64,000 bases of DNA, taken from assembly GCA_041650295.1 (NCBI GenBank), contig JBAZLM010000001.1:64318-128317 (forward strand), given 5' to 3'. The DNA comes from Candidatus Omnitrophota bacterium. Its GTDB lineage: Bacteria; Omnitrophota; Gorgyraeia; Gygaellales; Profunditerraquicolaceae. Positions 6,803 through 64,000 of this stretch are shown piece after piece. How positions within the stretch are numbered: position 1 is the first letter of the stretch; the number at the start of each line of letters is the position of its first letter. Below the pieces are notes generated by a model. The model was not told the DNA's origin and did not search any database. It was given only the letters and a program-made list of their open reading frames with translations. Both the position numbers and the translations under genes were made by a program.

Positions 6803-6870
6803 TTTACTCCACTTTTTAGCTTTATTTGACTACTTTATGGGTTAATTGCTCCATTTCCCTATTTTTGCTT

Positions 6871-6969
6871 ATTTTGCCCCTGACAGGAATTGAGCACTCA
6901 CCTTATCTAGCGAAACACTGTCGAGCGCAGCGAGACAGTGTCGAACCTTCGATTTCCTGTCACTTATTT
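6871..6969. repeat. tRNA-Arg-associated insertion: 23-nt direct duplicate of the tRNA-Arg 3' end plus trailer, a ~51-nt hairpin insert (TGAGCAC...CGAAA-stem-GAGCGCAGCGA-stem) and an inverted copy of the T-arm
   Basis: cttattttgcccctgacaggaat occurs at 6868-6890 and 6963-6985; between them is the hairpin CACTGTC-GAGCGCAGCGA-GACAGTG; same insert family as 60687-60860. Confidence 0.6.
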
Positions 6970-7041
6970 TGCCCCTGACAGGAATCGAACCTGTACCACC
7001 AGCTTCGGAGGCTGATGCGCTATCCGTTGCGCTACAGGGGC
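6970..7041 (-). tRNA. tRNA-Arg (anticodon CCG)
   Basis: Reverse complement folds as a cloverleaf: acceptor GCCCCTG/CAGGGGC, anticodon loop CTCCGAA, T-loop TTCGATT; no encoded CCA. Confidence 0.8.
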
Positions 7042-7048
7042 ATAAAAA

Positions 7049-18660: not shown

Positions 18661-19755
18661 TTAACTTAAGCGCATAGGCAAAACTATATATACATAACCA
18701 CTAATTCTAACCACTCCTGGTTTTTCTGTATCCATTAATTCTAAATTCACATGATCATCATGTAAGTTTTTTAACACATCCATTAAATATATCGGATTAA
18801 ACCCAATGACTAACTCTTTTCCTTGATACTCCACCTCTAATTCTTCATGAAACTCTCCTACATCGGGCGTAGACTTAGAAATTACTAATTTATTTTTAAA
18901 AACTTCTAATTTCACCGCCTGATAATCTGGCGTTGACAACAATGCCGCTCTTTTAGTAGCTAATAAAAACTGGGTTCGTGAAACTTTGATTTTATTATCT
19001 GAGGCCAGTGGGATAACTTGTTTATAATCCGGAAATTCTCCTTCAATAAGACGTGATATAATCGCTACGCTACCTAAATCAAACAAAGCTTGATTGCTAC
19101 TTACCACCAACGATAATTCCCCTTGATCTTTTAAATTGCGATTTAATTCATGGATTGTTTTAATCGGAATAATCATACTCACTTCTATATCATTTTCTCC
19201 CAAAGTAAGTTTCTCGTCGGCAATAGCTAAACGTTTACCATCCGTAGCTACCAAAGTAAGATTACCTTTAGTAATTTTAAAAAGAATACCGTTTAAAACA
19301 TACCGTGTTTCATCAAAAGAAACCGCAAAAGCAGTCAAAGATAACATCTGTTTTAAAACGCCTTGCTCAATCTTAATCACTTTTTTATCTTTAAACTCTG
19401 GTAATTTAGGAAACTCTTCTTTAGCTAATCCCATAATTTTAAATTGACACAAATCAGAGTCAATTACCACTTGATTGTTTTTCTTAGTAGTAATATTAAT
19501 GGTTTCTAAGGGAAATTCTTTAATAATATCACTAAATCTCTTCGCAGGAATCGTAATCGCCCCCTGTTCTTGAGTATCCACAGGAATTACACAAGTTATC
19601 CCAATATCTAAATCTGTAGCCGTTAACTTTAAAATATCCGCTTGAGCTTCAATTAAGATATTAGAAAGAATGGGTAGGGCAGATTTAGAGGTAATAATGT
19701 TCTGTACTACTTGAATTGCACCGATAAGTTGATTTTTTTCGACTTTAAACTTCAT
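18661..19755 (-). CDS. dnaN: DNA polymerase III beta sliding clamp
   Basis: 364 aa; three-domain clamp; immediately downstream of dnaA. Confidence 0.9.
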   Translation of the reverse strand: MKFKVEKNQLIGAIQVVQNIITSKSALPILSNILIEAQADILKLTATDLDIGITCVIPVDTQEQGAITIPAKRFSDIIKEFPLETINITTKKNNQVVIDSDLCQFKIMGLAKEEFPKLPEFKDKKVIKIEQGVLKQMLSLTAFAVSFDETRYVLNGILFKITKGNLTLVATDGKRLAIADEKLTLGENDIEVSMIIPIKTIHELNRNLKDQGELSLVVSSNQALFDLGSVAIISRLIEGEFPDYKQVIPLASDNKIKVSRTQFLLATKRAALLSTPDYQAVKLEVFKNKLVISKSTPDVGEFHEELEVEYQGKELVIGFNPIYLMDVLKNLHDDHVNLELMDTEKPGVVRISGYVYIVLPMRLS

Positions 19756-19896
19756 TTAACAATCTCCTTCTATTTATATATATTTAATAACTTAAAATAA
19801 TAGTAGTCTTAATAGGACCAAAAATCTGTGTACAAGCATAAAAACGGTTGTTATATATATGTTTAGAATAAAAATTAGCGGTTAATAACCTGGGTG
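19756..19896. other. dnaA-dnaN intergenic AT-rich region; candidate oriC DNA-unwinding element half
   Basis: Runs such as ttctatttatatatatttaataacttaaaataatag; DnaA-box-like TGTGTACAA; TTATCCAAG/TTATCAAAC just inside the dnaA 3' end. Confidence 0.4.
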
Positions 19897-21234
19897 TCAT
19901 TGTTTGATAACTTGGATAACTTTTTCAATTCGGGTTTTTAATTCCGGATTACAGTGAATATCCTCTTTTAATTTATTGTATGAATGTAAAACCGTAGTAT
20001 GGTCTTTGCCGCCAAAAAGCTCTCCAATTTCTGGTAGCGATAAATCTGTTAACTCTCTACTTAAATACATAGCGATTTGTCTGGGGAAAACAATTTGTTT
20101 GTTACGCTTCTTAGTTTTTAAATCTTGTAAAGAAATTCCAAATTCTTCTACCACGCAACGTTGAATAAAATCCACAGTAATTAATTTAGTTGGTTCTCTT
20201 AAGAGATCTTTTAAAACTTCTTGGGCTAATGGTAGTGTTACTGGCGCCTCTTCTAATAATGAATAAGCAATGGTGCGAATTAAAGCGCCTTCTAATTCTC
20301 GAATATTAGTTTTAATTAATTGCGCAATAAAAAAAATGACTTCGTCGGGTACAGCAACAGGTTCTCTTTCAATTTTCTTTTTTAAAATAGCCACGCGAGT
20401 TTCTAAATCGGGAGGCTGGATATCTGTAGCCAGGCCCCAACCGAAACGAGAGACTAATCGTTCCTGCAGATTAGTGATTTCTTTTGGTGGTCGGTCAGAG
20501 GAAAAAACAATTTGTTTATGCGCGTCGTATAAAGTGTTAAAAGTATGAAAAAATTCTTCCTGTGTAGATTCTTTACCAGCGATAAAATGAATATCATCAA
20601 TGACTAATACATCTAAGGAACGATATTTTTGTCGAAAGGCTGCTGTGGAACGATGAGCGATGGCATCGATTAATTCATTAGTAAATTTTTCACTGGAGAC
20701 ATAACATATCTTTACTCCAGAGGGTGCATTGTTACGAATTTGATGACAGATCGCCTGGATCAGATGTGTTTTGCCTAAACCAACTCCTCCGTAAATAAAT
20801 AAAGGGTTATAAGTTTTGGCTGGAGAATTAGCTACGGCGATGGAATATGCGTGAGCATGTCGATTGGATGGGCCAATCACAAAATTGTCAAAAGTGTAGC
20901 GGGAATTAAGATTAATGAAACCTGTAGTGATTGTAGGTTTGTTAGTTGCTTCTATTGTTGCAGGGGTTGTTTCTGTTTTTGTGGGGGTAGTGTTAGCTAC
21001 GAGTTTTACTAACAGATTATCCAAGCCCCTAAGCTTTAAAGTTTCTTGAATAAGATGCAGATAATGTTTTTCTACCCAATCTTTAAAAAATTGGTCCGGC
21101 GCCTCTAAGTGAAGATTATGATCATCCGTGGGCAATAGTTTTAGTGGTGCAATCCAAGTAGTAAAGACGGTTTCACCGAGTTTAGTCTTTAAGTCTCCTT
21201 GTGTCTTTTCCCAGTTTTTGGTTAGCTCGAGCAT
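19897..21234 (-). CDS. dnaA: chromosomal replication initiator protein
   Basis: 445 aa; Walker A GGVGLGKTHL, AAA+ box and C-terminal DnaA-box-binding HTH. Confidence 0.95.
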   Translation of the reverse strand: MLELTKNWEKTQGDLKTKLGETVFTTWIAPLKLLPTDDHNLHLEAPDQFFKDWVEKHYLHLIQETLKLRGLDNLLVKLVANTTPTKTETTPATIEATNKPTITTGFINLNSRYTFDNFVIGPSNRHAHAYSIAVANSPAKTYNPLFIYGGVGLGKTHLIQAICHQIRNNAPSGVKICYVSSEKFTNELIDAIAHRSTAAFRQKYRSLDVLVIDDIHFIAGKESTQEEFFHTFNTLYDAHKQIVFSSDRPPKEITNLQERLVSRFGWGLATDIQPPDLETRVAILKKKIEREPVAVPDEVIFFIAQLIKTNIRELEGALIRTIAYSLLEEAPVTLPLAQEVLKDLLREPTKLITVDFIQRCVVEEFGISLQDLKTKKRNKQIVFPRQIAMYLSRELTDLSLPEIGELFGGKDHTTVLHSYNKLKEDIHCNPELKTRIEKVIQVIKQ

Positions 21235-21490
21235 GATTTGTTAAAGTAATATACAGAGTTAACAGCTTATGCACACCTTGCATAAATCTGTGGATAAATA
21301 AATGTGTTAATTTTTTTAAAACATAGCTATTATAACAGAGACCAAAATCCTTGCAAGTAAAAAAGTTAAATGTCAGTTATTATACAACAAACTACTAAAC
21401 CGTCAATAAAAAACTTGACCGATAAATAAATGTGTGTTACAATTCACAAATCTTAGAAGATATTCATTTCAACTTAAAGGAGTTATTGCA
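21235..21490. other. dnaA-rpmH intergenic region with DnaA boxes; candidate oriC part, dnaA promoter region and rpmH promoter
   Basis: Perfect DnaA box TGTGGATAA at 21289-21297; 8/9 box TTATGCACA at 21267-21275. 15-mer GATAAATAAATGTGT repeated at 21293-21307 and 21421-21435. TTGACC-17-TACAAT promoter at 21415-21443; gene orientation flips here. Confidence 0.5.
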
Positions 21491-21628
21491 ATGAAAAAGA
21501 ACCTAAAGACACCCACAAAAATTGTTGGTAAGAAACGCCATGGTTTCCGCAGTAAAATGGCCTCAAAAAATGGTCGTAAATTAATTGCCCGTCGACGTGC
21601 TAAAGGTAGAAAACGTTTAAGCATCTAA
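21491..21628 (+). CDS. rpmH: 50S ribosomal protein L34
   Basis: [45 protein letters not shown]; AAGGAG RBS 9 nt upstream; listed ORF has a spurious N-terminal extension. Confidence 0.85.
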
Positions 21629-21641
21629 TTGAGGTAATACT

Positions 21642-21866
21642 TTGCCTGCGAGATTAAGTCGAGTTGCACTTACATTAATTACTTGTTATCAAAAATATTT
21701 GAGGCCGGCTCTTCCGGTCTGTTGTCGTTTTCAACCGAGCTGTTCGGAATATGCAAAGCAAGCAATTTTAAAATATGGTTTAATAAAAGGAGTATTCAAG
21801 GGTTTCATGAGAATATTGCGGTGTCATCCTTTTTCAGGACGCTGCGGATATGATCCCTTAATATAA
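21642..21866 (+). CDS. yidD: membrane protein insertion efficiency factor
   Basis: 74 aa; CRFQPSCSEYA and HPFSGRCGYDP motifs; follows rpmH with no rnpA in between. Confidence 0.85.
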   Translation: MPARLSRVALTLITCYQKYLRPALPVCCRFQPSCSEYAKQAILKYGLIKGVFKGFMRILRCHPFSGRCGYDPLI

Positions 21867-21870
21867 AATT

Positions 21871-23400
21871 ATGGAAAAACGTTTAGTATTGGCAATCGCA
21901 TTATCACTTTTAGTATTATTGAGTTGGTCAGTGCTTGTACCTAAGCCGCAAGTCGTTGAAAATAAAGGAGTTATAGCATCAGAGGTGAAGCTAGAAACTA
22001 TAGCCCAGAACACTCCCCTGGTTTTACAGCCTACTCCCGTTGCCCCCTCTTCAACAATAGTGATAAAAGAACCAATAAAATTTGTACAAAATAATCGGGA
22101 GATAGTTTTTAACCCAGAGAACGGCACGATTGTAAAAGTAATTTTTAAAGACAATCTTGAGCATCAATTGCCATTGTTTGTGGGCTTTTTAACCAATGAT
22201 AATTTAGCGTTTCATCATACTAATACTACAAAAGATTCGATTACCTTCGTTCACGAAGATCAAAGTCAAAGAGTTGTGAAGAAGTTTTCTTTACCTAACA
22301 ACAGCTACACCATAGGTTTAGAGATAAAAATTCAAAACTTATCTAGTGCTCCTTTGATATTAAATCCAAAATTAATTTTAGGTCGTTTAAACTTAGATGG
22401 CAAAAATCCTCAATCACGCTATCAAGATGTTTTGTTTAGCGGTAAAGAAAAAACGGCACATCTTTCTGCTGGTAAAGATGCTAGCAGCCAAGATATTAAA
22501 TTTATTGGGTTGAGAGATCAATATTTTTGTGTAATTTTAGAGCCGGCTGAACTAGTTACCAATGCTTATGTAAAAAAACTTTCACCTCAGGAGTCTGAGG
22601 TTGGACTTTTTACTCAAGAGATTACTTTAAAATCTAATGCTCAGATTGGACAGTCATATCGTATCTATTTGGGGCCACAAGATTTAAAGATATTAAATAG
22701 CGTAAATCCAGAATGGACATCTATTATTTATTTTGGTATGTTTGATTTTATCGCCCAGTTGATTTTGCAGTTGCTGGGATTTTTTTATAGCTTAGTGCAT
22801 AATTGGGGTTGGGCATTAATTATTTTGAGTGTGGCGGTTTATTTCTTATTGTTCCCGCTCTCGATTAAACAAATGCGCTCGATGAAGGAGATGCAGATTT
22901 TGCAACCAAAGATTGAAGCGCTCCGCAATGAATACAAAAATAATCCACAAAGACTAAATAAAGAGATCATGGATCTTTATAAAGAACACAAGGTTAATCC
23001 ATTGAGTGGTTGTTTACCGTTGATATTACAAATGCCGATATTTTTTGCGCTTTATCAGGCGTTGATTCGTTCGGTAGCTTTACGCGGCGCTCATTTTTGG
23101 TGGATAAAAGATCTTTCTTCGCCCGATCGACTATTTGTTTTTAAAAATTCTATTCCTATTTTGGGTAACCAATTAAATATATTGCCTATTTTAATGGCGA
23201 TTGGTATGTTTGTGCAGCAGAAGATCTCTATGGCCAAGGCAACTGGGGATTCTGCTCAACAACAAAAAATCATGATTGTGGTAATGCCGATTATGTTCGG
23301 AGTAATTTTTTATCAAATGCCATCGGGATTAGTTCTGTATTGGTTTGTGAATAGTATTTTGATGTTAGGGTATCAATATAAAATTAACAAACAAAAATGA
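21871..23400 (+). CDS. yidC: membrane protein insertase YidC
   Basis: 509 aa; N-terminal TM, periplasmic domain and C-terminal 5-TM 60KD_IMP core (NWGWALIILSV...). Confidence 0.9.
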   Translation: MEKRLVLAIALSLLVLLSWSVLVPKPQVVENKGVIASEVKLETIAQNTPLVLQPTPVAPSSTIVIKEPIKFVQNNREIVFNPENGTIVKVIFKDNLEHQLPLFVGFLTNDNLAFHHTNTTKDSITFVHEDQSQRVVKKFSLPNNSYTIGLEIKIQNLSSAPLILNPKLILGRLNLDGKNPQSRYQDVLFSGKEKTAHLSAGKDASSQDIKFIGLRDQYFCVILEPAELVTNAYVKKLSPQESEVGLFTQEITLKSNAQIGQSYRIYLGPQDLKILNSVNPEWTSIIYFGMFDFIAQLILQLLGFFYSLVHNWGWALIILSVAVYFLLFPLSIKQMRSMKEMQILQPKIEALRNEYKNNPQRLNKEIMDLYKEHKVNPLSGCLPLILQMPIFFALYQALIRSVALRGAHFWWIKDLSSPDRLFVFKNSIPILGNQLNILPILMAIGMFVQQKISMAKATGDSAQQQKIMIVVMPIMFGVIFYQMPSGLVLYWFVNSILMLGYQYKINKQK

Positions 23401-23597
23401 AAAAAGTGCGATTTATTGAAGTTGAAGGAAAAACAGTTGAAGAAGCAGTAAAAAAAGCTTTAGCACAGTTACAGTTGCCCCGCAATCGGGTTAAGATAGA
23501 GAGTGTTACGGAAGAGAAAAAAGGACTTTTTGGCATGGCAGGAGAAAAGCCGGCCAAGTTGCGAGTGAGTGTAATTCCTGGTAAAGATAACACTTGA
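23397..23597 (+). CDS. Jag/KhpB N-terminal-domain-only protein
   Basis: 66 aa matching the Jag_N domain in the conserved yidC-jag position; no KH or R3H domains follow. Confidence 0.5.
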   Translation: MKKVRFIEVEGKTVEEAVKKALAQLQLPRNRVKIESVTEEKKGLFGMAGEKPAKLRVSVIPGKDNT

Positions 23598-23680
23598 CAA
23601 CCCTGTTGATTTTGAGATAATTGATTTAACTCAGGTGGATGTTCCCCGGGGAACCAAGATATATAACCACAACTATATCA

Positions 23681-24472
23681 ATGGGTAAAATAATTGCAAT
23701 TTGTAATCAGAAGGGTGGCGTAGGTAAAACCACGACGTCGATTAACCTTGCGGCTTATTTGGCAATGGCCGGTAAGCGTGTAATTCTGATTGATCTTGAT
23801 CCTCAGGCTAACGCCACGAGTGGAATTGGGATTAATAAGCATGATGTACAAAAAAGCACTTACCATATTTTGCTTGAAGAATCTAAACTCGCCGAAATTT
23901 TACAAAAAACTGTAATCGATAATTTATGGCTCGCTCCTTCTAATTTAGATTTAACGGGAGCTGAGGTAGAACTAGTGGGTGCGCTAGGTCGTGAGTATAG
24001 ATTAAAAAGAGCATTGCAAGTTGAAAAAGAAAACTTTGATTTTATTATTATAGATTCTCCACCGTCATTGGGTCTCTTAACTATCAATGGTTTATGTGCT
24101 GCTGATTCAGTAATTATTCCGGTACAGTGTGAATATTATGCGTTAGAAGGGTTAACGCAACTCCATAACACGATTAAACTTGTGAAAGAAAATCTTAATC
24201 CTGCGTTAAGTGTGGAAGGGGTTCTTTTAACTATGGCGGATTTTCGCACCAATTTGACCAAGGAAGTAATTAATGAAGCGCGTAACCATTTTAAAGAAAA
24301 GGTTTATAATACCGTTATTCCGCGCAATATTCGTTTGACTGAAGCTCCCAGCTTTGGTAAACCGATTGCCCTATATGATAAGGCTTCTTTAGGGGCGGAG
24401 AAGTATGAGGATCTAAGCAGAGAAGTTTTAGGTTTATCAGCCAATTCATCAATTCCAAAAGGAGTCGTTTAA
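23681..24472 (+). CDS. parA: chromosome partitioning ATPase ParA/Soj
   Basis: Starts MGKIIAICNQKGGVGKTT (deviant Walker A); upstream part of the listed ORF is probably not translated. Confidence 0.9.
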   Translation: MGKIIAICNQKGGVGKTTTSINLAAYLAMAGKRVILIDLDPQANATSGIGINKHDVQKSTYHILLEESKLAEILQKTVIDNLWLAPSNLDLTGAEVELVGALGREYRLKRALQVEKENFDFIIIDSPPSLGLLTINGLCAADSVIIPVQCEYYALEGLTQLHNTIKLVKENLNPALSVEGVLLTMADFRTNLTKEVINEARNHFKEKVYNTVIPRNIRLTEAPSFGKPIALYDKASLGAEKYEDLSREVLGLSANSSIPKGVV

Positions 24473-25329
24473 TGGAAAGAAGAGCGTTGGGAAAAGGATT
24501 GAGCGCGTTGATACCAGAAAAAGCAGTGGATGTTAATGTCCATAAAGAAGAGATTGTTTATGTCCAGTTTGGACAAATTAAACCTAATCCATTTCAACCA
24601 AGAGAAGATTTTGATCAAGCAAACATAGAGGAGCTTGCCCAATCGATCAAGGAAAAAGGAGTGATTCAACCGCTTTTAGTTAGACGGCGAGGTGATAATT
24701 ATGAATTGATTGCTGGAGAGAGAAGATTACGTGCATCTAACTTACTGGGGCTCAAAGAGATACCGGTTATTGTGCGTGAAGTTAGTGATCAAGATTCTTT
24801 AGAGCTGGCTTTAATTGAAAATATCCAGCGCGAAGAATTAAATGCCATTGAAGAAGCGCATGCTTATCAGCATTTGATCGATAAATTTCATGTTAGTCAA
24901 GAAAAAATTAGCGAAGCATTAGGAAAGTCCAGAGTAACTATCACTAACACTCTGCGCTTGCTTAAGCTGCCACATGAAATTCAAGTGGAGATGAAAAAAG
25001 GCAGAATTAGTTTTGCCCACGGTCGAGCACTATTGGAGATCGATGATGCCAATCATCAGCGTCGACTAACCCAAGATATTATTACCAAGGGACTTTCAGT
25101 ACGCGAATTAGAAAATTTAATTAAAAGTAATCGTCCTAAATCTATAAAGCGTAATATTGGTCAAGGACAACGTGATCCTTTAGTAGCTATTTTAGAAGAA
25201 CAAATGCAGCATGCATTAGCTACCAAGGTAAGAATTAGTAAACGTAAAAAAAGAGGACATATTAATATTGAGTTTTATTCTCCAGAAGATTTGCAACGTA
25301 TTGTAAATGTAATAAAAGGAGGCAAGTAA
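24472..25329 (+). CDS. parB: chromosome partitioning protein ParB/Spo0J
   Basis: 285 aa; ParB box GERRLRA and HTH; overlaps parA stop. Confidence 0.9.
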   Translation: MERRALGKGLSALIPEKAVDVNVHKEEIVYVQFGQIKPNPFQPREDFDQANIEELAQSIKEKGVIQPLLVRRRGDNYELIAGERRLRASNLLGLKEIPVIVREVSDQDSLELALIENIQREELNAIEEAHAYQHLIDKFHVSQEKISEALGKSRVTITNTLRLLKLPHEIQVEMKKGRISFAHGRALLEIDDANHQRRLTQDIITKGLSVRELENLIKSNRPKSIKRNIGQGQRDPLVAILEEQMQHALATKVRISKRKKRGHINIEFYSPEDLQRIVNVIKGGK

Positions 25330-28328: not shown

Positions 28329-28333
28329 TTAAT

Positions 28334-28445
28334 TCAGAACTAAGAACTAAGAATTAAGAGCTAAGAGTTAAAATAGGGTAAAGGTATTTTACTAAAGTAG
28401 TATTTAGTTTTTCTTAGCTCTTAGTTCTTTTGTCTTAGCTCTGCT
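28334..28445. repeat. long imperfect inverted repeat built from CTAAGA-type hexamer repeats between tRNA-Leu and tRNA-Val
   Basis: Left arm gaactaagaactaagaattaagagctaagag. Right arm cttagctcttagttcttttgtcttagctc, an imperfect reverse complement of the left arm. The arms flank a ~45-nt AT-rich loop. Confidence 0.5.
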
Positions 28446-28450
28446 TTACC

Positions 28451-28524
28451 GGGCTCATAGCTCAGTTGGTTAGAGCGTTGCGTTGACATCGCAAAGGTCT
28501 CAGGTTCAAGTCCTGATGGGCCCA
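28451..28524 (+). tRNA. tRNA-Val (anticodon GAC)
   Basis: GGGCTCATAGCTCAGTTGGTTAGAGC...anticodon loop TTGACAT...GGTTCAAGTCC...TGGGCCCA. Confidence 0.85.
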
Positions 28525-28654
28525 TTGTAAATTGGTTTGTGGTTCTCCCGCCGGAGTTTAATATATTGGCGGGATCCCGCCAGTGCTTAAAGAATAAGCG
28601 GGAAAGTCCACTTGGGCCCATTTAAATAAACGTAGTGCATACACCTTATAAACT

Positions 28655-54956: not shown

Positions 54957-55121
54957 ATAAAGCCAGATCTTACTACTTAAGTATACACGTTTTTAGTATT
55001 GATTTTCAAGGGGGTAGAATTAATAATTTTTGAAAACGTTTTCTTTTTGCCGTATTTTCCTCTTGAATTTGCCTTACCTATATAGCATACTTACTTTACT
55101 ATGAGCCCGGTAGGCATAAAT

Positions 55122-58100
55122 ATGAAAAACTCTAAACTTAGAAAAATTTTATCTTTATTTCTGTGTGGACTGCTATTGCTTCAGCAGACCGGCTTTGCTC
55201 AGGTGGCCAGCGTCGAGCTAAACTTATCTAGTCGGTTTGCTTCCGCAGGCAGTGCTTTATCCAATATACTATCTGTAGATAAGTTCCGTCCAGTTCATCT
55301 AAGATCTATCTCCTACGATCAACTCAACAATAACTTTAAGCTTTTAATTGATAAAGGGGATACTAAGAATCCCAAAACTCAAGAGATCGAATCTACTACC
55401 AAAGACCTGCTCAACTACTTCTTTGTGGGTATTGCTCTACCCAATAGCTCCTTCTGGGTAAACCTTAGACCTGATGCTCCGACTAACATTATTGATCCAC
55501 TACTGGCTCAAACCGAAGTCGGTAAGATTCTCCTAGAAGCCGACCTGCAACTTAAAAAAGACACCGCTGAAGCCACTAACCCGCAATCCCCAGCAGGCAA
55601 AGCCTACTGGAATAAGCTCTATGCTAAAGCCAATGAACTCTACGGTAACCAGAACGTCAACATCCCCACACTAACTAGACCTTGGATAGTTCCTGATGAG
55701 ATCATTATCCGTGAATCTACCAACAATGCCTATGTCTACAAAGCTACTCTAAAGGTCATGTTAGAACAAGATTATCTTAAAGATAACTCTACCTACTCTT
55801 TTAAAGATGACCGCGCTAAACAACTCAATGAATACTCATCTCAGATTATCAGACAAGAGATCATCCCTAAACTCACTAAAGAGATTAACTCCGCTAAACG
55901 TTATGCCCAACTGCGTCAGGTATACTACTCATTAATCCTAGCCCAATGGTTTAAAGCCAGAAACCTCAACAACCCTAATAATCCTTATGCTAAACAAATC
56001 GACCGTAAAGATCTAACCAACCTTAAAACTAATACTCCTTACTCCGTAGACACTTACTTTAACTCTTATAAACAAAACTTTACCCAAGGCCAATACAACA
56101 TCAAAGAACCCGTCTATACACCCTATGGACAGGTGGTCAGGAGTTATTTTAGTGGAGGCGTGGTATTTGGTGAACCAATAACTAAAGCTATACAAAAGGA
56201 TATTGTTCCAGGATATAGATTAGATATGAATCAATCTTATTTAACAAGTGTAGAAGGTGATTTAGTGCATGTGATGGCAGAAGGAGTAAGTAGGCAGAGA
56301 GCTTATTCTAAAACTGATAGCAATAGCTCTCTTAAAGATCTTGAATATACATATGGTGTAAAAATAAATGTTCTTACTACCAGTGAATTTGATCAAAAAG
56401 CCAGTCAATTGGGGATCAGTAATCCCGGTAAGGGATTTGGTTATTTTGATCGCTCAGCTGACCAGCCGTATGTTTATATTCTTAAAGGCAATGAGAATAA
56501 CCGCGATTTAGTTATGCACGAAATTACTGAAGCTTTAGCCAGACAGAGCCAAGGCGTAGCGACTGCTGGAGCAGAAACGGGAGGAATTTCGGGAAATGGA
56601 ATAGATCCAATAGTTAATAAATTGATTGCGCAAGAAGTGGCTAGCAAGCTGGCGGAATTATCTGTAAAAACTGGATTAAATATTTCAGAGAAGATAAAAA
56701 ATAGTAATGAGCTAGTTAAGTGGATGGAAGCTTTACAAGAATATCCTTTATTGGCAGATAAAATTACTGCGCATATTATTGTTACTTTAAGAATGTTACA
56801 TAATAGTAATAATCCTCAAGATGCCATAAATTTTTGGGGAGATTCTAGAGAAATGTGGAAAGTTAGGGAGGCGCTGGTTCCGCTTTTACAGAGCCAAATT
56901 CCAATGTTGTGGAAACAATTATTAGTGAAATTTTTACCGTTGGTAAGCTATGATCAGTTGTTGCGCATACGCGATCTATCTAGAGAATTACAGGATAATA
57001 TGCAACCGCCAACCTATGCATCCGATGATGATATTAATTACATGTCTACTATTGTTAGACCTACAGGCGACTACATTGCCGCTAGAATAAGAGATACAAT
57101 TCATCGCAATCCTAGTAATAAAATAAATTTAATTTTATTACAAGCTTATAAGGTTTATTTAAATGAAGGGCTTGATGCGTATAGGGAATATTTGAAAAAT
57201 AATCCGCAAACGCAAATATTACCTGCTAATAATATTTTGGATGATCGATTAAATTTTGAAAAAAAAGCTAAAGCATTAGAAAAATGCGATGCCTTAATAT
57301 CTCTGGTAGGAGATCTGACTGGTAAGGCCTCTGGAGAAATAATCATGCAAAGCCGTTTTGAGACTTGGAAGAAAGCGGTGTCTGGGCATAGTGATTTTGG
57401 AATAAAAATTTCTAATTTAATTAATGCAAATCCTGATAATCCTACTGATACTTTAGAGTATTTAGGAGAGATTGTCGCAATGAGAAAAGATCTCCAAAGA
57501 ATGTTTATTGATCTTACTGGCGAAGCGTTGTTTGTAAGCTATTTGTTAGACAATGCTTTAGAGACTCTATATTATGTTAATTGCGACAAAATTTTTGAAG
57601 ACAAAAGTGTTAATTCTTTAATATTAATGAGGAGTCTTTTGGAAAATACCAGTTTAAACGGGTATTCTCAGCAAGAAAGTGCAACAATCTTAGAAAAATT
57701 AAAAGAATGGAGCCAGACAACATCTCTAAAAATTAGTAACAAAAAATCTTTAACTGAAAATGATTGGAGTGAGCTTGTTAAAATATATTTAGATGTAAAA
57801 AATAAAATTATTAATGCAAATACAAATTTAATTATTGATAATTTTTATGAGGAAGCTGCAAAATTAATGGGCATTACTAATGCCGAAGATGTTTCCGCAG
57901 ATATTTTAAGAAATGACACCATTTCTTTGTTATCGCGAGCTTTAAGTGAAGCTCTGGTAAAAGCTGGAATTACGCAAGTCATATATGCTGGAGAAGGGGC
58001 AGGCAAAGTAAGGGTTTTTGATAACCTGGACTTTTTAGAGAAAAATCCCCCAACAGATAACGATATTGTTATTCTTAAATTTGATTTAACTGAAGAACAA

Positions 58101-60530
58101 ATTAGTAGAAATATTACTTCAGCTGTTTCAGCGGTGGTTTTTTCTAAAACCGGGCCAATTTCACATTTGGCTCTTTGGGTAAAGGGTAAACGTATCCCTT
58201 CGGCAATTTGTTCCACTGTTTCGCAATTTGAACAATTTCAAGGTCAGAAGGTTAAATTTATAATTAATGATGACCAAGTAGTTTTAGAACCAACTAAAGA
58301 TTTAGTGGAAGGTTCTGTAAAGCCAGCCAAAGAAATTAAAAAAATAGTGTTGCCTAGGGCAAAGAATAAATTAGAGCATATTATTTACGCTGATCAGTTT
58401 GCAGCTGATAATGCGGGGAATAAGGCAGCGGGATTGAAAAAAATTCCGGCGGAATTTTTATTACCGAGCTTTGTAGTAAGTAGTAGTTTTTATGATGCAG
58501 TATTAAATGATCCGCTTAATGCTGATATTGCAGTTGAACTATCAGATTATTTGCAAAAAGCAATTCGTAATCCATTAGCTAATGATATATCGGATACTTT
58601 AGATAAAGCGAGGCGTTTGATTAATCAATTAGTGATTTCAGATGCTAAAGCAGCGGAAATTTTAGGGGCGATTGAAAAAACAATGGGTCAAAATAAGGAT
58701 TTAAGTTTGGTTGTCAGGTCTTCAACTAACGCTGAAGACCTGCCCGGTTATGTGGGAGCTGGACTTTATGGTTCTTTTAAAAATGTGCGCCCGGATCAGG
58801 AATCGTTAGCTGAAAATATTAAAAAAGTTTGGGCTAGTGTCTGGAATGAGCTCCCCTTTAGGGATCGTCAAGTTGAAGGGATTGATCATTTGGCGGTTTA
58901 TCCGGCTGTACTTATCCAGCAGATGTATCCTTCGGATTACCACGCAACGATTTATACTCAGGATCCGGCAAATAAAGGAAAATTAGTTATTCAATTAAAG
59001 CAGGGGCTTGGCGAGCCTGATGAATATAATGATAAGAATATTCAGCAGTTTTCGGGTATGCCGTATCTTTTTATTTATGACGCTGATTCTCATGAATTAA
59101 GTGTAAAAAGCTATGCTGATATTAATTATAAGTTAATTTTAAGAGATGGTGTTATTCAGGAAGTTTTAGCAGACTATAATAATGATCCTATTGGCGATAA
59201 AAATGGAAGAGAGCTTTTAAAACAACTTGCTCAGGTGGCATTAGATATCGCTGCAAAAGCAAAAACTCCTCAAGATATTGAAGGAGGAATTAGGAATGTA
59301 AGTGGGGTTTGGGAATTTAAGCTATTTCAGTCCAGAGATCAAGCTAATGCATCTGATATAGCCAAGACATCTGCACAGGTTGATAGTAATACAATTATTG
59401 CTGGAGAAATTGGTTCGCTTGCTAATGAAATTGCAGGTTTGTTTCGAAAAGAACTTAAAAAAGGATTAAGTGATAGAAATTTTGATGCCATTATTAGTAA
59501 ATATGGCGGGGTGTTCGTAGGTGAAGGTAGATCTGGCAAGGCTTATAAATTTTCTACTACTACCGGAGAGATGGTAATTAAATTTTTTGTTGATGTTGGT
59601 CCCGTTGAATATACCACGTTTGAATCTGAGGTACGGGGTTTATCGCGGGCAGACAACCCATTATTTCAACAGTATGTAACTAGTGCTAGAGCTAATGATG
59701 ATAAAGTAAGCTATATTGTGACAAAATTTGTGAGCGGAATAAGCTTTGATTCTGAGTATAGTTATTCGGAATGGCAGGAATTAAGCCCAGCTGCACAAGA
59801 AAAATATTTTGATAAAATAGAACAAAGAATCCAAAGTATTCCGGATGAGCATTGGGATCAACTGGTTTTAATTTTTAAATATGCAAAAGAAGAGGGAATT
59901 ATTATTGATGCAAAAAAATCCGATAATTTTAAATATACCCCGGAAAGAGGGTTCGTTGTTTTGGATTATGTGTCTTTGATAAATAAAGAGATGTCTGCTA
60001 ATCTTCTTGAAGAAGCAGCTCCTTTGATTGTTGGTGGGGGCTTAATGGCTCAAATAGGAGATGAGAACATTGCTTTGGTTAAGAGCAAGATAGGCGAGGC
60101 GAAAAAACGAATTAGAAATAATTCAGTGGTAATTGTAGATGAAAATGATACAAAAAAAGGTGGTATTGATTTTCGTTTCTTACCGATTGTTACGCAGTCC
60201 ATGGGTAGTTTAAAAGCGAGCATGAGAGGGATACCCGTAAATACTTTGCAACAAATTAATTTAACTAGAGAGTGGAGTGATATTAATCGTTTAGTTAGTT
60301 CTGGGATTGCTCCTTCCACAGAGCGTTTAAAAGAATACTTTGCCGCTAGTTGTTTTAAAGGAAATCTAGATACAGATAATCAAAAGATAATTGCCTGCAT
60401 TTCGGATATTTTAAGAATGGAAGAGCTAACTTGTTCGACTACCGATGCCACCCTTAAAGATATTTTAGTAGTCTTAGGTTCCGGTAGAAGTGGGGAGGAT
60501 TTAAAGTTAGCGCTGAGTGGGGTTAATTAA
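55122..60530 (+). CDS. giant exported multidomain protein: Sec signal peptide, ~950-aa unknown N-terminal region, PEP-utilizer phosphohistidine swivel domain, PPDK_N-type ATP-grasp nucleotide-binding domain, protein-kinase-like domain, C-terminal tail
   Basis: Signal peptide MKNSKLRKILSLFLCGLLLLQQTGFA-QV; the listed ORF starts 7 codons earlier. Swivel domain: GEGAGKVRVF...NDIVILKFDLTEE...SKTGPISHLALWVKGKRIPSAICST, His codon near 58164. PPDK_N: NKAAGLKKIP...LVVRSSTNAEDLPGYVGAGLYGSF...VWASVWNE...AVLIQQMYPSDYHATIYTQDP. Kinase-like: G-loop VGEGRSGKAYKF, MVIKFF lysine, IIIDAKKSDNF catalytic loop, VLDY. Confidence 0.7.
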   Translation: MKNSKLRKILSLFLCGLLLLQQTGFAQVASVELNLSSRFASAGSALSNILSVDKFRPVHLRSISYDQLNNNFKLLIDKGDTKNPKTQEIESTTKDLLNYFFVGIALPNSSFWVNLRPDAPTNIIDPLLAQTEVGKILLEADLQLKKDTAEATNPQSPAGKAYWNKLYAKANELYGNQNVNIPTLTRPWIVPDEIIIRESTNNAYVYKATLKVMLEQDYLKDNSTYSFKDDRAKQLNEYSSQIIRQEIIPKLTKEINSAKRYAQLRQVYYSLILAQWFKARNLNNPNNPYAKQIDRKDLTNLKTNTPYSVDTYFNSYKQNFTQGQYNIKEPVYTPYGQVVRSYFSGGVVFGEPITKAIQKDIVPGYRLDMNQSYLTSVEGDLVHVMAEGVSRQRAYSKTDSNSSLKDLEYTYGVKINVLTTSEFDQKASQLGISNPGKGFGYFDRSADQPYVYILKGNENNRDLVMHEITEALARQSQGVATAGAETGGISGNGIDPIVNKLIAQEVASKLAELSVKTGLNISEKIKNSNELVKWMEALQEYPLLADKITAHIIVTLRMLHNSNNPQDAINFWGDSREMWKVREALVPLLQSQIPMLWKQLLVKFLPLVSYDQLLRIRDLSRELQDNMQPPTYASDDDINYMSTIVRPTGDYIAARIRDTIHRNPSNKINLILLQAYKVYLNEGLDAYREYLKNNPQTQILPANNILDDRLNFEKKAKALEKCDALISLVGDLTGKASGEIIMQSRFETWKKAVSGHSDFGIKISNLINANPDNPTDTLEYLGEIVAMRKDLQRMFIDLTGEALFVSYLLDNALETLYYVNCDKIFEDKSVNSLILMRSLLENTSLNGYSQQESATILEKLKEWSQTTSLKISNKKSLTENDWSELVKIYLDVKNKIINANTNLIIDNFYEEAAKLMGITNAEDVSADILRNDTISLLSRALSEALVKAGITQVIYAGEGAGKVRVFDNLDFLEKNPPTDNDIVILKFDLTEEQISRNITSAVSAVVFSKTGPISHLALWVKGKRIPSAICSTVSQFEQFQGQKVKFIINDDQVVLEPTKDLVEGSVKPAKEIKKIVLPRAKNKLEHIIYADQFAADNAGNKAAGLKKIPAEFLLPSFVVSSSFYDAVLNDPLNADIAVELSDYLQKAIRNPLANDISDTLDKARRLINQLVISDAKAAEILGAIEKTMGQNKDLSLVVRSSTNAEDLPGYVGAGLYGSFKNVRPDQESLAENIKKVWASVWNELPFRDRQVEGIDHLAVYPAVLIQQMYPSDYHATIYTQDPANKGKLVIQLKQGLGEPDEYNDKNIQQFSGMPYLFIYDADSHELSVKSYADINYKLILRDGVIQEVLADYNNDPIGDKNGRELLKQLAQVALDIAAKAKTPQDIEGGIRNVSGVWEFKLFQSRDQANASDIAKTSAQVDSNTIIAGEIGSLANEIAGLFRKELKKGLSDRNFDAIISKYGGVFVGEGRSGKAYKFSTTTGEMVIKFFVDVGPVEYTTFESEVRGLSRADNPLFQQYVTSARANDDKVSYIVTKFVSGISFDSEYSYSEWQELSPAAQEKYFDKIEQRIQSIPDEHWDQLVLIFKYAKEEGIIIDAKKSDNFKYTPERGFVVLDYVSLINKEMSANLLEEAAPLIVGGGLMAQIGDENIALVKSKIGEAKKRIRNNSVVIVDENDTKKGGIDFRFLPIVTQSMGSLKASMRGIPVNTLQQINLTREWSDINRLVSSGIAPSTERLKEYFAASCFKGNLDTDNQKIIACISDILRMEELTCSTTDATLKDILVVLGSGRSGEDLKLALSGVN

Positions 60531-60670
60531 ATTTAGTAACTGCTATCTTGCTTGCCAGTAAAACCAAACATTATTGCGATAAAAGGTGATTTTATTTTTA
60601 TAAATCATTCTTTACAGTCGTGTATAAAGCGGCTATAATTAATTCCGCTTTATATTTATAGGTCAGTTAT

Positions 60671-60766
60671 TGCCCTGTGGTCTAATTTGAGCACCTTGGT
60701 TTTAAATTTGGCGAAATCCTGCGAGCGCAGCGAAGCAGGAGGTAGGACTAAAGCTATTTAAATTAC
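60671..60766 (+). repeat. repeat unit R1: tRNA-Gln 5' 17 nt + ~54-nt hairpin insert (loop GAGCGCAGCGA) + GGTAGGAC
   Basis: TGCCCTGTGGTCTAAT identical to the tRNA-Gln 5' end, then TTGAGCACCTTGG...GGCGAAATCC-CCTGC-GAGCGCAGCGAA-GCAGG-AGGTAGGAC; same insert family as at 6891-6941. Confidence 0.6.
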
Positions 60767-60860
60767 TGCCCTGTGGTCTAATTTGAGCACCTTGGTTTTA
60801 AATTCGGCGAAATCCCGCCGGTTTTTAGGCGGGAGGTAGGACTAAAATTATTTAAGCTAT
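60767..60860 (+). repeat. repeat unit R2: second copy with a sequence-divergent but structurally equivalent hairpin
   Basis: Identical to R1 for the first ~47 nt, hairpin replaced by CCCGCC-GGTTTTTA-GGCGGG, then GGAGGTAGGACTAAA. Confidence 0.6.
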
Positions 60861-60934
60861 TGCCCTGTGGTCTAATGGTAGGACACAAGAATCTGGATCT
60901 TGTTATCATGGTTCGAGTCCATGCGGGGCAACCA
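60861..60934 (+). tRNA. tRNA-Gln (anticodon CTG) with encoded CCA
   Basis: TGCCCTGTGGTCTAATGGTAGGACACAAGAATCTGGATCTTGTTATCATGGTTCGAGTCCATGCGGGGCAACCA; U1-A72 pair typical of bacterial tRNA-Gln; anticodon loop ATCTGGA. Confidence 0.8.
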
Positions 60935-60937
60935 TCT

Positions 60938-61006
60938 AGCTCTATCTCCGTCGAGAGATAGAGCTTAATTAATCCCTGACGTAGTTTCTCCGTCGGGGAT
61001 TTTTTA
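60938..61006 (+). terminator. perfect 11-bp hairpin followed by an intrinsic terminator downstream of tRNA-Gln
   Basis: AGCTCTATCTC-CGTC-GAGAGATAGAGCT, then CCCTGACG-tagtttct-CGTCGGGG + TTTTTT. Confidence 0.55.
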
Positions 61007-61039: not shown

Positions 61040-61250
61040 TGGTTGGATTCATTTTTAAATAAATAATTATTTCTTTAGGCATTATATAAACTGCATAAAT
61101 AGCCATACAGTAGGTACAATATCGCTAAACATCTCGGACTTGGCATTTTTATAATGGCTTCTATATAATGCCATTTACGCCTTAATCTTGGCTATATTTG
61201 CCATATATAATGCCATTATATAGAATAGTGTGGTTATTATGTTAGATTAA
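61040..61250. other. AT-rich region with repeated TATATAATGCCATT / GCCATACAGT motifs between tRNA-Gln and the recombinase gene; candidate att/recombinase-binding site at an integrated-element junction
   Basis: TATATAATGCCATT at 61162-61175 and 61204-61217; inverted copy TATAATGGC at 61154-61162; GCCATACAGT at 61102-61111 and again at 63407-63416. Confidence 0.35.
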
Positions 61251-62888
61251 TTAAAGGTTAGTTTCTTGGGTAAGAGTTCGCCAGGATTCTATTTGTTTAG
61301 TCCAATCAAATTCTCTGGCTATTAGGTTGGCTTTGTATTCTGGCACTGCATTAAGGATTTCATTAGATCCCATGAGAATCTCTTCTTGGATTTTCGGAGA
61401 GAGGAATAGAAGTTCTACTATAAGATGCAATTGGATGGCAGACATATTGAGCCACTGCGCCACTTGTTTAATATTTGTGGCTTTGCCATTATCTAGTAGC
61501 TCTTGTGCTTGGTAGGCAAGGATTAACCGCTGGCGTAATTTTGGTTCATTTTTAATTTCAATTTTAGGATCATGTGTAGTGATATGCCGGACTTCTTTTA
61601 AATCTGTACTGTATTCCTGAGCTGTACCGTCAGAGAATGTAATAAATATTTTTTTAGCCACTGTATCATAATCAATCTGCTTAATTAAGTTTACTAGGAA
61701 TGATTTTTGTTCTTGAGAGGTGAAGCTTTGCCAATTTTCCTTTAATTTAGCGCCTTCTGGATGATTGAACAAGCATTCTGCTACGGCTTTTTCGATTTCA
61801 AGAGCGTTTATTGTTTTAGTGTTGCAGGTGTGATAACCGTATTTCTGTGCATGGATACAAACATAGTACCTATATTTGGTCTGTTGCGCTTTGTAAGTGT
61901 AAGTTGCAATCATTGGCCTATTACAGGCCTTACAGAAGAGGAGTTTAGTTAGTATATTTATAACTTTTTTCCCGCGAACCAATTCTTGATAATTTCGATT
62001 CTTTTTTAAAAGTTCCTGAACGCGTTTATATGAATCTTCATCAATGATTGCTTCTTGTTCGCCTTCATAAATTGCTCCATTATAAGAAACTTTTCCAATA
62101 TAAAGTGTGCTATGTAGAATATGGTTGATGGTTGTATTCTGGAAGGCATTACCATCGGCTTTCTTGCCATCTTTAGTAGTATAGGATTTGCTTCGCAAGC
62201 CTTTTTCCGTGAGCGCTTGGGCAACATGTTTTAGAGAATAGCCCTTTAGGTATAAGTCATAAATAGTTTTTATGGTTTCAGCTTCTGTTGGGTTTATTGT
62301 TAGTTTTTTTGTTCCTTTGATGCAATTGTAACCTAAAGGTGGCCTTCCACCAAGCCATTTTCCTCTCTTTCTAGCCGCGCCCATTTTATCTTTTGTTCTT
62401 TCGGAGATAATCTCGCGTTCAAATTGAGCAAAAGATAGTAAAATGTTTAATGTTAACCGGCCCATAGAGGAGTTAGTATTGAATGCTTGAGTTACAGATA
62501 CAAAGGTAACGTTATGCTTATCAAAAAGCTCAAGAAGATGAGTGAAGTCGACTAGGGACCGGGAGAGTCGGTCAACTTTATACACTACAACGCAGTTGAT
62601 TTTACCGGTTTTGATATCTTCAATTAGTTTTTTCAGCGCCGGTCGTTCGGTATTTGATCCAGTATATCCCCCATCGTCATAAAGGTCATCTAATGCAACC
62701 CACCCTTCATTCTTTTGGCTTTTTATGTAGTTGATGCCGGATTCTCTTTGTGCATCAAGCGTGGTAAATTCTTGCTCTAAGCCTTCAGTGGTAGACTTTC
62801 GCGTGTAAATAGCGCAGTAGATTGTTTGTTTCTCTTGCCCAGTAGCACTGTCCATAATTTCCTTACATTCTAAAGAATAGATAGCCAT
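61251..62888 (-). CDS. large serine recombinase (resolvase/invertase N-terminal catalytic domain + recombinase and zinc-ribbon domains)
   Basis: 545 aa; catalytic region YTRKSTTEGLEQEFTTLDAQRE (Ser nucleophile), VYKVDRLSRS motif, C-terminal Cys cluster. Confidence 0.85.
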   Translation of the reverse strand: MAIYSLECKEIMDSATGQEKQTIYCAIYTRKSTTEGLEQEFTTLDAQRESGINYIKSQKNEGWVALDDLYDDGGYTGSNTERPALKKLIEDIKTGKINCVVVYKVDRLSRSLVDFTHLLELFDKHNVTFVSVTQAFNTNSSMGRLTLNILLSFAQFEREIISERTKDKMGAARKRGKWLGGRPPLGYNCIKGTKKLTINPTEAETIKTIYDLYLKGYSLKHVAQALTEKGLRSKSYTTKDGKKADGNAFQNTTINHILHSTLYIGKVSYNGAIYEGEQEAIIDEDSYKRVQELLKKNRNYQELVRGKKVINILTKLLFCKACNRPMIATYTYKAQQTKYRYYVCIHAQKYGYHTCNTKTINALEIEKAVAECLFNHPEGAKLKENWQSFTSQEQKSFLVNLIKQIDYDTVAKKIFITFSDGTAQEYSTDLKEVRHITTHDPKIEIKNEPKLRQRLILAYQAQELLDNGKATNIKQVAQWLNMSAIQLHLIVELLFLSPKIQEEILMGSNEILNAVPEYKANLIAREFDWTKQIESWRTLTQETNL

Positions 62889-63330
62889 TCCAATGTTGTC
62901 CTGTTATAGCGCAGGCTACATTAGAAAGGGATTTGTAGATATTGCCATTATATTCAAAGCCATTTTCAAGCACCTTAACTTGAATTTCTTTACCTTTGTA
63001 ATTTTTAGTAATAATGCTACCAGGAATCGGAAGACGACGATCCTTCAACTGTGAAACATTGCTAGTTATTGGTTTAATATTATTCGGCCTAAGCAATAGA
63101 TTATTAATAGGGTCATATTTCTGAATAAGCTCTTTAATTTTGTTTTGAGTTTCAGCGGAAATGCCCCCGGATTCCAATTCCTGAAGCCGATAGGCAAGCT
63201 TACGCCAGAGAAATACCTTATTATTCGAAGGAACTTTCTGGCCCGGGAATAACTCTTCGTATTTTGTCTCAAGCTCACTTAGGGTTTTTTTCTTAAGTTC
63301 TACTATTTGAGATAAATTGGTTTCAGCCAT
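62863..63330 (-). CDS. DUF2924-family protein co-transcribed with the serine recombinase
   Basis: LWRKLAYRLQELESGGIS motif characteristic of DUF2924; 26-nt overlap with the recombinase start; listed ORF extends 10 codons upstream of the probable MAETNLS start. Confidence 0.5.
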   Translation of the reverse strand: MAETNLSQIVELKKKTLSELETKYEELFPGQKVPSNNKVFLWRKLAYRLQELESGGISAETQNKIKELIQKYDPINNLLLRPNNIKPITSNVSQLKDRRLPIPGSIITKNYKGKEIQVKVLENGFEYNGNIYKSLSNVACAITGQHWNGYLFFRM

Positions 63331-63588
63331 AATTGGTCTCCTTTTTTCAGTGGTGAGCAAGGCTGTAAAGGCAGTTGCGTCGAACCACTTTCGTTAGTAC
63401 GTATATGCCATACAGTTCGAGAGATAGCAAGTTATATAATAGATATTATTTTCGATTATTTAACCCCCAAGGCGTATTATCATTAGCAAGTTAGTATATT
63501 TTGCCACACCTGTTTATAGGGAGTGTTTCTATAGCGGGTTCCTTCTGGGCGTTTCTAGAATAATACCTCTTGTTTCGCTAGAATTTCA

Positions 63589-63982: not shown

Positions 63983-64000
63983 AGCTTTAAGAAGAAAGCG

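Follow-up and report, generated by a model that had tools for sequence, protein, structure and literature searches.

Hairpin-split copies of tRNA gene ends in an Omnitrophota genome as a possible footprint of small mobile DNA

Half of the tRNA genes in the window, the 64,000-nt stretch of DNA analysed here, are accompanied by a copy of one gene end, about 100 nt long and split by a hairpin-bearing insert. The DNA comes from the oriC region of an Omnitrophota MAG. These split outer copies are best explained as a DNA-level footprint of mobile DNA, in arrays that would be resized by unequal recombination, and we give this explanation slightly better than even weight. Mobile DNA has long been known to land at tRNA genes, but in the form of kilobase-sized islands that carry integrases, and what the window shows is smaller. 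The same layout recurs in two candidate phyla, sometimes together with homing endonuclease genes, and a literature search returned no description of a split end copy combined with a hairpin insert. If the inserts are active, they may represent a minimal tRNA-targeting mobile element of ultra-small uncultured groundwater bacteria, and could cause assembly breaks and mis-called tRNA fragments in host genomes; if they are only scars, they would be useful markers of past invasions at tRNA-Gln.

Structure of the array at tRNA-Gln

Tandem Repeats Finder places 2.2 copies of a 96-nt period at 60667-60876. The array and the tRNA gene that it adjoins comprise the following features.

60671..60766, plus strand: unit 1, made up of tRNA nt 1-16 (60671-60686), insert (60687-60740), GGTAGGAC (60741-60748) and tail (60749-60766)
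60718-60739, plus strand: unit 1 hairpin, CCTGC-GAGCGCAGCGAA-GCAGG
60767..60860, plus strand: unit 2, made up of tRNA nt 1-16 (60767-60782), insert (60783-60834), GGTAGGAC (60835-60842) and tail (60843-60860)
60814-60833, plus strand: unit 2 hairpin, CCCGCC-GGTTTTTA-GGCGGG
60861..60934, plus strand: intact tRNA-Gln(CTG) with encoded CCA (ARAGORN; Rfam tRNA, 60.2 bits)

The two tandem units with a tRNA-Gln 5' part that had been described in the original prediction are thus borne out by Tandem Repeats Finder, ARAGORN and Rfam. The identity to the start of the tRNA was put at 17 nt, but the actual run is 16 nt, the next base being T in the units and G in tRNA-Gln. This run, TGCCCTGTGGTCTAAT (tRNA-Gln nt 1-16), has three matches in the window, at 60671, 60767 and 60861, against 0.29 expected. 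As proposed, the insertion lies within the D-loop of the tRNA-Gln 5' part: inserts of 54 nt (unit 1) and 52 nt (unit 2) are both followed by GGTAGGAC, which is tRNA-Gln nt 17-24, and an 18-nt AT-rich tail closes each unit. Each insert consists of a 31-nt 5' part, TTGAGCACC..GGCGAAATC, and then a GC hairpin. The description of the units as identical outside the hairpin is nearly right, except that they differ by one T/C in the 31-nt part and at five positions in the tails.

Both hairpins fold as DNA or as RNA; as DNA, that of unit 1 reaches -5.6 kcal/mol (z -1.6) and that of unit 2 -8.5 kcal/mol (z -4.0). Whole units, on the other hand, fold no better than shuffled sequences. Neither unit is called as a tRNA by ARAGORN or Rfam, a complete cloverleaf being found only at 60861-60934, and no Rfam 15 family, including small ribozymes and guide scaffolds, matches the units at E up to 10; at the related loci described below, the units have no Rfam match at E up to 0.1. 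A hammerhead-like reading of UGAGCAC..CGAAA was rejected because the core positions misfit, no stem II is possible and Rfam gives no match. The 18-nt tails were also considered as copies of the promoter -10 region, but the likeness was no better than that of shuffles.

Tandem units beside a tRNA gene, each with a short tRNA end piece, are also present at the E. coli tyrT locus, where every repeat holds the last 19 nt of tRNA-Tyr. The tyrT units, however, are 178 bp long and lie downstream of the gene, and no hairpin insert splits the tRNA piece.

Position of the array in the transcription unit

The tRNA-Gln transcription unit is delimited by the following features.

60611..60639, plus strand: promoter TTTACA-17-TATAAT, 11/12 consensus positions (consensus scan)
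about 60939-60964: first trailer hairpin, upstream of the terminator hairpin
60973..61005, plus strand: terminator hairpin and T-run, end of the tRNA-Gln transcription unit

The promoter block CTTTACAG...TATAATTA is invariant in three related species (L123, L124 and L138), and in those of the three without units it stands 16-21 nt from tRNA-Gln. Since this conserved promoter lies upstream of the array, and near the tRNA where units are absent, the array occupies the leader of the tRNA-Gln transcript. Co-transcription with tRNA-Gln, as originally predicted, is therefore plausible, but from another promoter than the one suggested: TTGCGA-18-TATAAA is absent from the output of the consensus scan. 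The two-hairpin trailer is also found in L121, L123 and L126.

A leader position raises the possibility that the units form a working leader RNA, for example an acceptor/D-arm mimic that titrates the amidotransferase or the GluRS encoded by the neighbouring gene, or a signal for processing or attenuation. Such a role, which we consider quite unlikely, would fit an array inside a conserved transcription unit with gltX as the conserved upstream neighbour. In unit 2 an alternative hairpin, TCGGCG-AAATCC-CGCCGG, is followed by TTTTT, as an attenuator would be, but unit 1 has no terminator-like form; neither unit 1 nor the tRNA-Arg copy described below has a T-run after its hairpin, so this form is not shared by all copies. 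The folding of whole units and the Rfam results given above also count against a leader RNA.

Copies at tRNA-Arg and tRNA-Val

The motif TGAGCAC-N5-30-GCGAAA has three matches in the window against 0.10 expected, the third of them at 6891. The motif search that had been proposed along with the original prediction thus led to more copies, at tRNA-Arg and tRNA-Val, so that three of the six tRNA genes in the window are affected and the inserts form a family rather than a one-off duplication.

6868..6968, plus strand: unit beside tRNA-Arg(CCG), made up of a 23-nt direct repeat, insert, CGAACCT and filler
6868-6890 and again 6963-6985: direct repeat CTTATTTTGCCCCTGACAGGAAT, CTTATTT plus the first 16 nt of the reverse-complemented tRNA-Arg
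6891-6941: tRNA-Arg insert, TGAGCAC..GCGAAAC and the hairpin ACACTGTC-GAGCGCAGCGA-GACAGTGT
6942-6948: CGAACCT, the next 7 nt of the tRNA-Arg gene, directly after the insert
6969-7042, minus strand: tRNA-Arg(CCG)
28451-28524, plus strand: tRNA-Val
28525..28620, minus strand: unit downstream of tRNA-Val, made up of filler, GGTTC (28541-28545), double-hairpin insert (28546-28603) and the 3' end copy AAGTCCACTTGGGCCCA (28604-28620)

Read in the sense of the tRNA, the unit at tRNA-Arg is a 3' end copy split in the T-loop. Its hairpin combines the loop of unit 1, GAGCGCAGCGA, with a wholly different stem, which agrees with the earlier observation that a hairpin is preserved although its sequence varies. 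The tRNA-Val insert has the minus-strand sequence TAAGCAC-T-GGCGGGATCCCGCC..GGCGGGA, its counterpart in unit 2 being TGAGCAC..GGCGAAATCCCGCC..GGCGGGA, and the composite motif AGCAC-N0-20-GGCGRRATCCCGCC has two matches in the window against 0.00 expected. Local alignment against shuffles gave 0/300 for Gln unit 1 with Arg and 1/300 for Gln unit 2 with Val. An AT-rich long inverted repeat, AGAACTAAGAACTAAGAATTAAGAGCTAAGAG .. CTCTTAGTTCTTTTGTCTTAGCTCT, is present at 28330-28445, between tRNA-Leu and tRNA-Val.

At each of the three loci the insert occupies the loop of the first stem-loop, some 16 nt in from the end of the gene, and is directed towards that gene. Relative to the tRNA it runs in sense direction at tRNA-Gln and in antisense direction at tRNA-Arg and at tRNA-Val, and its direction shows no agreement with the replichores flanking dnaA. 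The last bases to its left are AAT at Gln and Arg and CTT at Val. One hairpin, at the 3' end, is present in the Gln and the Arg insert and two in the Val insert, an arrangement that was compared with IS200/IS605-type elements; the 64-kb window holds no gene for a Y1 transposase, TnpB or IscB. Every end copy that keeps the whole D-arm (5') or the T-loop (3', at tRNA-Arg and tRNA-Val) is split. The window-type insert amounts to four copies at three loci, all inside tRNA end copies, and nhmmer with the three inserts found no more copies in 1.17 Mb of sequence.

These copies bear on two further explanations. If the promoter-proximal part of the tRNA had simply been duplicated in tandem at this locus, without any wider family, the tandem layout and the 94-96-nt period of the array would be accounted for. 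Such a duplication is hardly credible given the additional copies at two other tRNA genes, the same insert in another species (see below) and two hairpins that differ wholesale instead of by point changes. It is also very improbable that the units encode a guide-type RNA, in which the 16-nt tRNA-matching segment and a scaffold (TGAGCAC..GCGAAA plus hairpin) would steer a nuclease or transposase to tRNA genes. The guide-then-scaffold RNAs at the left ends of IS200/IS605 elements do have a similar layout: at three loci a gene-matching segment of 16-17 nt lies directly 5' of the insert and differs according to the gene next to it, whereas the motifs of the insert are retained. Yet the 64 kb contain no effector gene, and the scaffold would be only about 52 nt long and has no Rfam match to known guide scaffolds. 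Since the tRNA sequence picks up again beyond the insert, a duplicated gene end accounts more simply for the matching segment.

Mobile genes in the window and tRNA-targeted integration

The chromosomal replication origin is marked by gene order and by a switch of gene strand near 21.3-21.8 kb, within 18661-25329, where dnaN-dnaA lie on the minus and yidC-parA-parB on the plus strand; the origin separates dnaA, dnaN, gyrB and gyrA from yidC and parAB. The only mobile-element genes in the 64 kb are found on the far side of tRNA-Gln from the array, and transposase or endonuclease genes, including GIY-YIG or LAGLIDADG ORFs, are absent from the window.

61159-61225: 17-nt inverted repeat TTCTATATAATGCCATT/AATGCCATTATATAGAA with repeated TATATAATGCCATT, between the recombinase genes and tRNA-Gln
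61251-62888: large serine recombinase of 545 aa with Resolvase, Recombinase and Zn-ribbon domains, reading towards tRNA-Gln
61251-63360: the serine recombinase gene together with a DUF2924 gene, both reading towards tRNA-Gln

The inverted repeat is probably one end of an integrated element. On the side towards gltX, an ORF of 1809 aa with a PPDK_N domain occupies 55101-60530, between gltX and tRNA-Gln, at a site where relatives have only an ORF of 65-80 aa. Hundreds of very long Omnitrophota proteins, whose domains are otherwise different, align with about 19-27% of this query at 38-86% identity. The 1809-aa ORF and GltX each have a 100% match among NCBI MAG proteins; an exact-sequence look-up of the large protein gave no record.

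The split copies could also be remnants of integrase-borne islands, whose integration duplicated the gene end, whose body was then deleted and whose end would survive as the insert. Tyrosine integrases cross over in the T-loop or D-loop of tRNA genes, and the repeats described here begin in just these loops. Displaced tRNA gene fragments mark the ends of integrated islands and are the usual sign by which integration at tRNA genes is recognised (Islander database, PMC4383910; tRNA gene fragments, PMC9897764). The units resemble such fragments in that an end copy stands beside an intact, regenerated tRNA, with a repeat starting in a cloverleaf loop, at hot spots that vary between relatives. In addition, an island with a serine recombinase and DUF2924 abuts tRNA-Gln, and at tRNA-Arg the distal fragment in the window is the copy joined to the conserved flank; in relatives the tRNA-Arg site has the tRNA without a unit, or no tRNA-Arg.

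We nevertheless regard this origin as unlikely. The inserted segments, bounded by the 16-nt direct repeats of the tRNA-Gln end and by the 23-nt repeat at tRNA-Arg, measure only about 72-80 nt and hold no ORF, integrase or cargo, so that the "island" would be some 75 nt long. The fragments are split by a hairpin, after which the next 5-8 nt of the tRNA resume, which a simple attL/attR pair would not produce; they form tandem units, and both 5' and 3' gene ends are used. Serine recombinases are not known to create long direct repeats, and the one present lies on the other side of tRNA-Gln. Neither tRNA-Arg nor tRNA-Val has a recombinase nearby, and there is no displaced 3' fragment of tRNA-Gln up to position 64000.

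The locus in related genomes

A metagenome scan with the first 24 nt of tRNA-Gln yielded three contigs from one sample (L121, L122 and L123), and the other orthologous loci were reached through GltX homologues of 84-86% identity; overall, GltX at the orthologous gltX-tRNA-Gln loci is 84-89% identical to that of the window. Comparison of relatives at this locus, another of the checks originally suggested, showed that the presence of units varies. There are none in L121, L122, L124, L125 and L138, one in L126-128 and L130, two in L129 and three in L123. L121 and L122 have the same tRNA-Gln as the window. The exact architecture, TGCCCTGTGGTCTAAT-N40-70-GGTAGGAC, had no match in a scan of one genome per species, viral contigs scanned for parts of the insert gave none, and plasmid BLAST returned no match.

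L123 is the orthologous locus, with the gene order porB-porC-gltX and a GltX 89% identical. Two of its three units are identical, and the third, the most upstream, has a decayed 5' end. Their inserts match unit 2 at 51/52 positions. The tails of 18 nt and the trailer of the tRNA, by contrast, have diverged, a combination that fits selection on the insert or very recent spread and argues against a plain old scar. L126-128 and L130 have another type of unit, consisting of TGCCCTGTCGT, the palindrome CCCTGCCTGGCGGCAGGCAGG and TAATCGGTAGGACTTaAGATT, in which the insertion follows nt 11 and the TGAGCAC part is lacking; the two units of L129, from the same aquifer, are of this type.

The leader RNA considered above would gain from an insert as conserved between two species as the tRNA itself, and from a hairpin maintained with different stems. 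It sits poorly, however, with the complete absence of units in close relatives, with the antisense position of the same insert at tRNA-Arg and tRNA-Val, and with the unrelated palindrome at a different D-arm position in other lineages.

In L122, a GC-rich and strongly folding segment of about 190 nt (686-870; -84 kcal/mol, z -4.0) lies downstream of the unit-less tRNA-Gln. It holds CCCGCCAGGTTTTGTGGCGGG, close to the hairpin of unit 2, has no Rfam match, and is followed by a tRNA 3' copy with TAGCGCAGCG inserted in the T-loop. The related hairpins of L122 are in sense direction to the tRNA at a 3' site, and the orientation rule is broken there.

Homing endonuclease genes at tRNA-Gln

In one clade, L131-135 and L137, the same kind of 5' fragment, with a longer, nested hairpin, precedes a double-LAGLIDADG ORF of 268 aa whose score exceeds the two Pfam cut-offs. 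Only 2 nt separate the end of this ORF from a tRNA-Gln in which both the acceptor stem and the D-stem are different.

A generic tRNA-Gln pattern retrieved at least 120 loci from genome contigs, mostly of Patescibacteria rather than Omnitrophota. Among the matches listed, a GC hairpin splits a 5' fragment directly ahead of tRNA-Gln in L006 and L041, and in L053 and L054 the split 5' fragment is followed by a GIY-YIG ORF of about 80 aa (Pfam), which starts a few nt after GGTAGGAC, and then by tRNA-Gln; in L054 the acceptor stem of this tRNA differs from that of the fragment. At six of about 118 loci among the matches listed (L038, L053, L054, L092, L105 and L107), the distance from tRNA-Gln to a small GIY-YIG gene is no more than a few hundred nt, and four more GIY-YIG matches in the same set are about 0.5-2 kb away (L059, L071, L085 and L093). 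In the Patescibacteria contigs L044, L061 and L097, a resident tRNA-Gln is broken into a 5' and a 3' piece with a complete tRNA-Gln between them. The acceptor stems of the two differ in L097, which looks as though a tRNA-Gln cassette had landed inside the resident gene.

Free-standing homing endonuclease genes are known to bring a replacement piece of their target, as in fungal mitochondrial atp6 with a GIY-YIG gene and in the tRNA region of phage T4 with SegB. The arrangement in L131-135/L137 and in L053/L054 is comparable, with the old fragment on one side of an endonuclease gene and, on the other, an intact copy of the target that is sometimes different. It departs from these systems in that the target is a bacterial chromosomal tRNA-Gln and the old fragment always has a GC hairpin in its D-arm, and the window has no endonuclease gene. 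The endonuclease genes and replacement tRNA-Gln of the relatives suggest, from their sequence layout, that endonuclease-driven invasion may be one source of such structures; the window itself is a gene-less remnant only.

Dispersed GC palindromes

GC-rich palindromes of the form CCTGCCTG..CAGGCAGG are also found outside tRNA fragments. In L126 they lie inside vorB (7770-7815 and 8639-8659; also in L127-L130), where they coincide with in-frame additions of 15 aa and 7 aa to VorB relative to orthologues, and the hairpin of L053, CCTGCCTGCGCAGGCAGG, is nearly the same as that of L126. The palindromes away from tRNA fragments, those in vorB included, indicate that a dispersed GC-palindrome family exists in these genomes. 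For the window-type insert, the resemblance to the CCTGCCTG palindromes is a likeness of kind only.

GC-rich mini-insertions of AT-rich genomes include Rickettsia palindromic elements, which the vorB palindromes of L126 much resemble, yeast mitochondrial GC clusters, and double-hairpin and repetitive hairpin-forming elements. GC-rich hairpin mini-insertions have been described from mitochondria (PMC2800124). The elements seen here are alike in being short single or double hairpins, dispersed and sometimes nested in an AT-rich genome, tolerated in frame (L126 VorB) and present or absent between close relatives. The window-type insert is different, as it occurs only in tRNA end copies, at a fixed distance and in a fixed direction, and has a non-hairpin 5' part (TGAGCAC..GCGAAA).

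Proposed origin of the split end copies

The original prediction had taken the changing hairpin as a sign of structural selection at the RNA or DNA level; that it points to a selected, tRNA-derived RNA is not supported. We favour a DNA-level origin, as a mobile element or a scar, because the units are patchy, with 0 to 3 copies in close relatives, and because the insert that is sense at tRNA-Gln is antisense at tRNA-Arg and tRNA-Val. Sister lineages use another hairpin at another D-arm position, and the architecture is associated, in relatives, with homing endonuclease genes and dispersed GC palindromes, which points the same way.

As a footprint of mobile DNA, the two units would be dead, dispensable copies of the promoter-proximal end of tRNA-Gln (nt 1-24), located in the leader. 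The insert would belong to a small family of GC-rich insertion sequences with one or two hairpins, which splits the D-loop after nt 16 at tRNA-Gln and the T-loop of the 3' end copies at tRNA-Arg and tRNA-Val. The process may begin with a break or integration in the loop of the first stem-loop. A stretch of about 24-30 bp made up of gene end and flank would then be duplicated, so that one tRNA copy stays intact; the outcome is observed, and the mechanism is a proposal. The hairpin element is kept only in the outer copy, presumably because an insertion there would spare, and elsewhere would kill, the working gene; that an intact copy cannot tolerate the insert would explain the splitting of all end copies that retain the D-arm or T-loop. 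Finally, the array could change in size by unequal recombination between the 16-23-nt repeats, which is backed by the difference in copy number between L127 and L129 and by the two identical units in L123.

Our weighting of the footprint is tempered by the conservation of the insert, its restriction to tRNA end copies, the sense hairpins of L122 and the lack of any transposase or endonuclease gene besides the serine recombinase in the 64 kb. As the TGAGCAC-type insert occurs only in tRNA end copies, it has no demonstrated independent mobility. More tentatively, and with well under even confidence, the units may belong to an undescribed class of tiny, gene-less, self-compensating mobile elements in Omnitrophota and Patescibacteria that home to the first loops of tRNA ends. 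Insertion of such an element would go along with duplication of the gene end; the tRNA would thereby survive, and the outer copy would continue to house the element. Certain lineages would have the elements paired with LAGLIDADG or GIY-YIG genes and a replacement tRNA-Gln, and the near-identity of inserts between species would reflect ongoing spread.

Further motif and hairpin matches

A motif match in L008 is consistent with chance. In L013 (2340-2400), a 100-N scaffold gap is followed by TGCCGGGTCGT, the 5' 11-mer of tRNA-Gln, and by TT-TGAGCAC-12 nt-GCGAAAT; no mobile gene lies near this match, which may either represent a window-type insert in Patescibacteria or have arisen by chance. The intergenic region between pyrC and carB in L141 (3680-3760; the same in L142) holds two tandem GC hairpins, GTTGTCATCCCCG..CGGGG, which are absent from L140 and from the window and are another hairpin insertion family.
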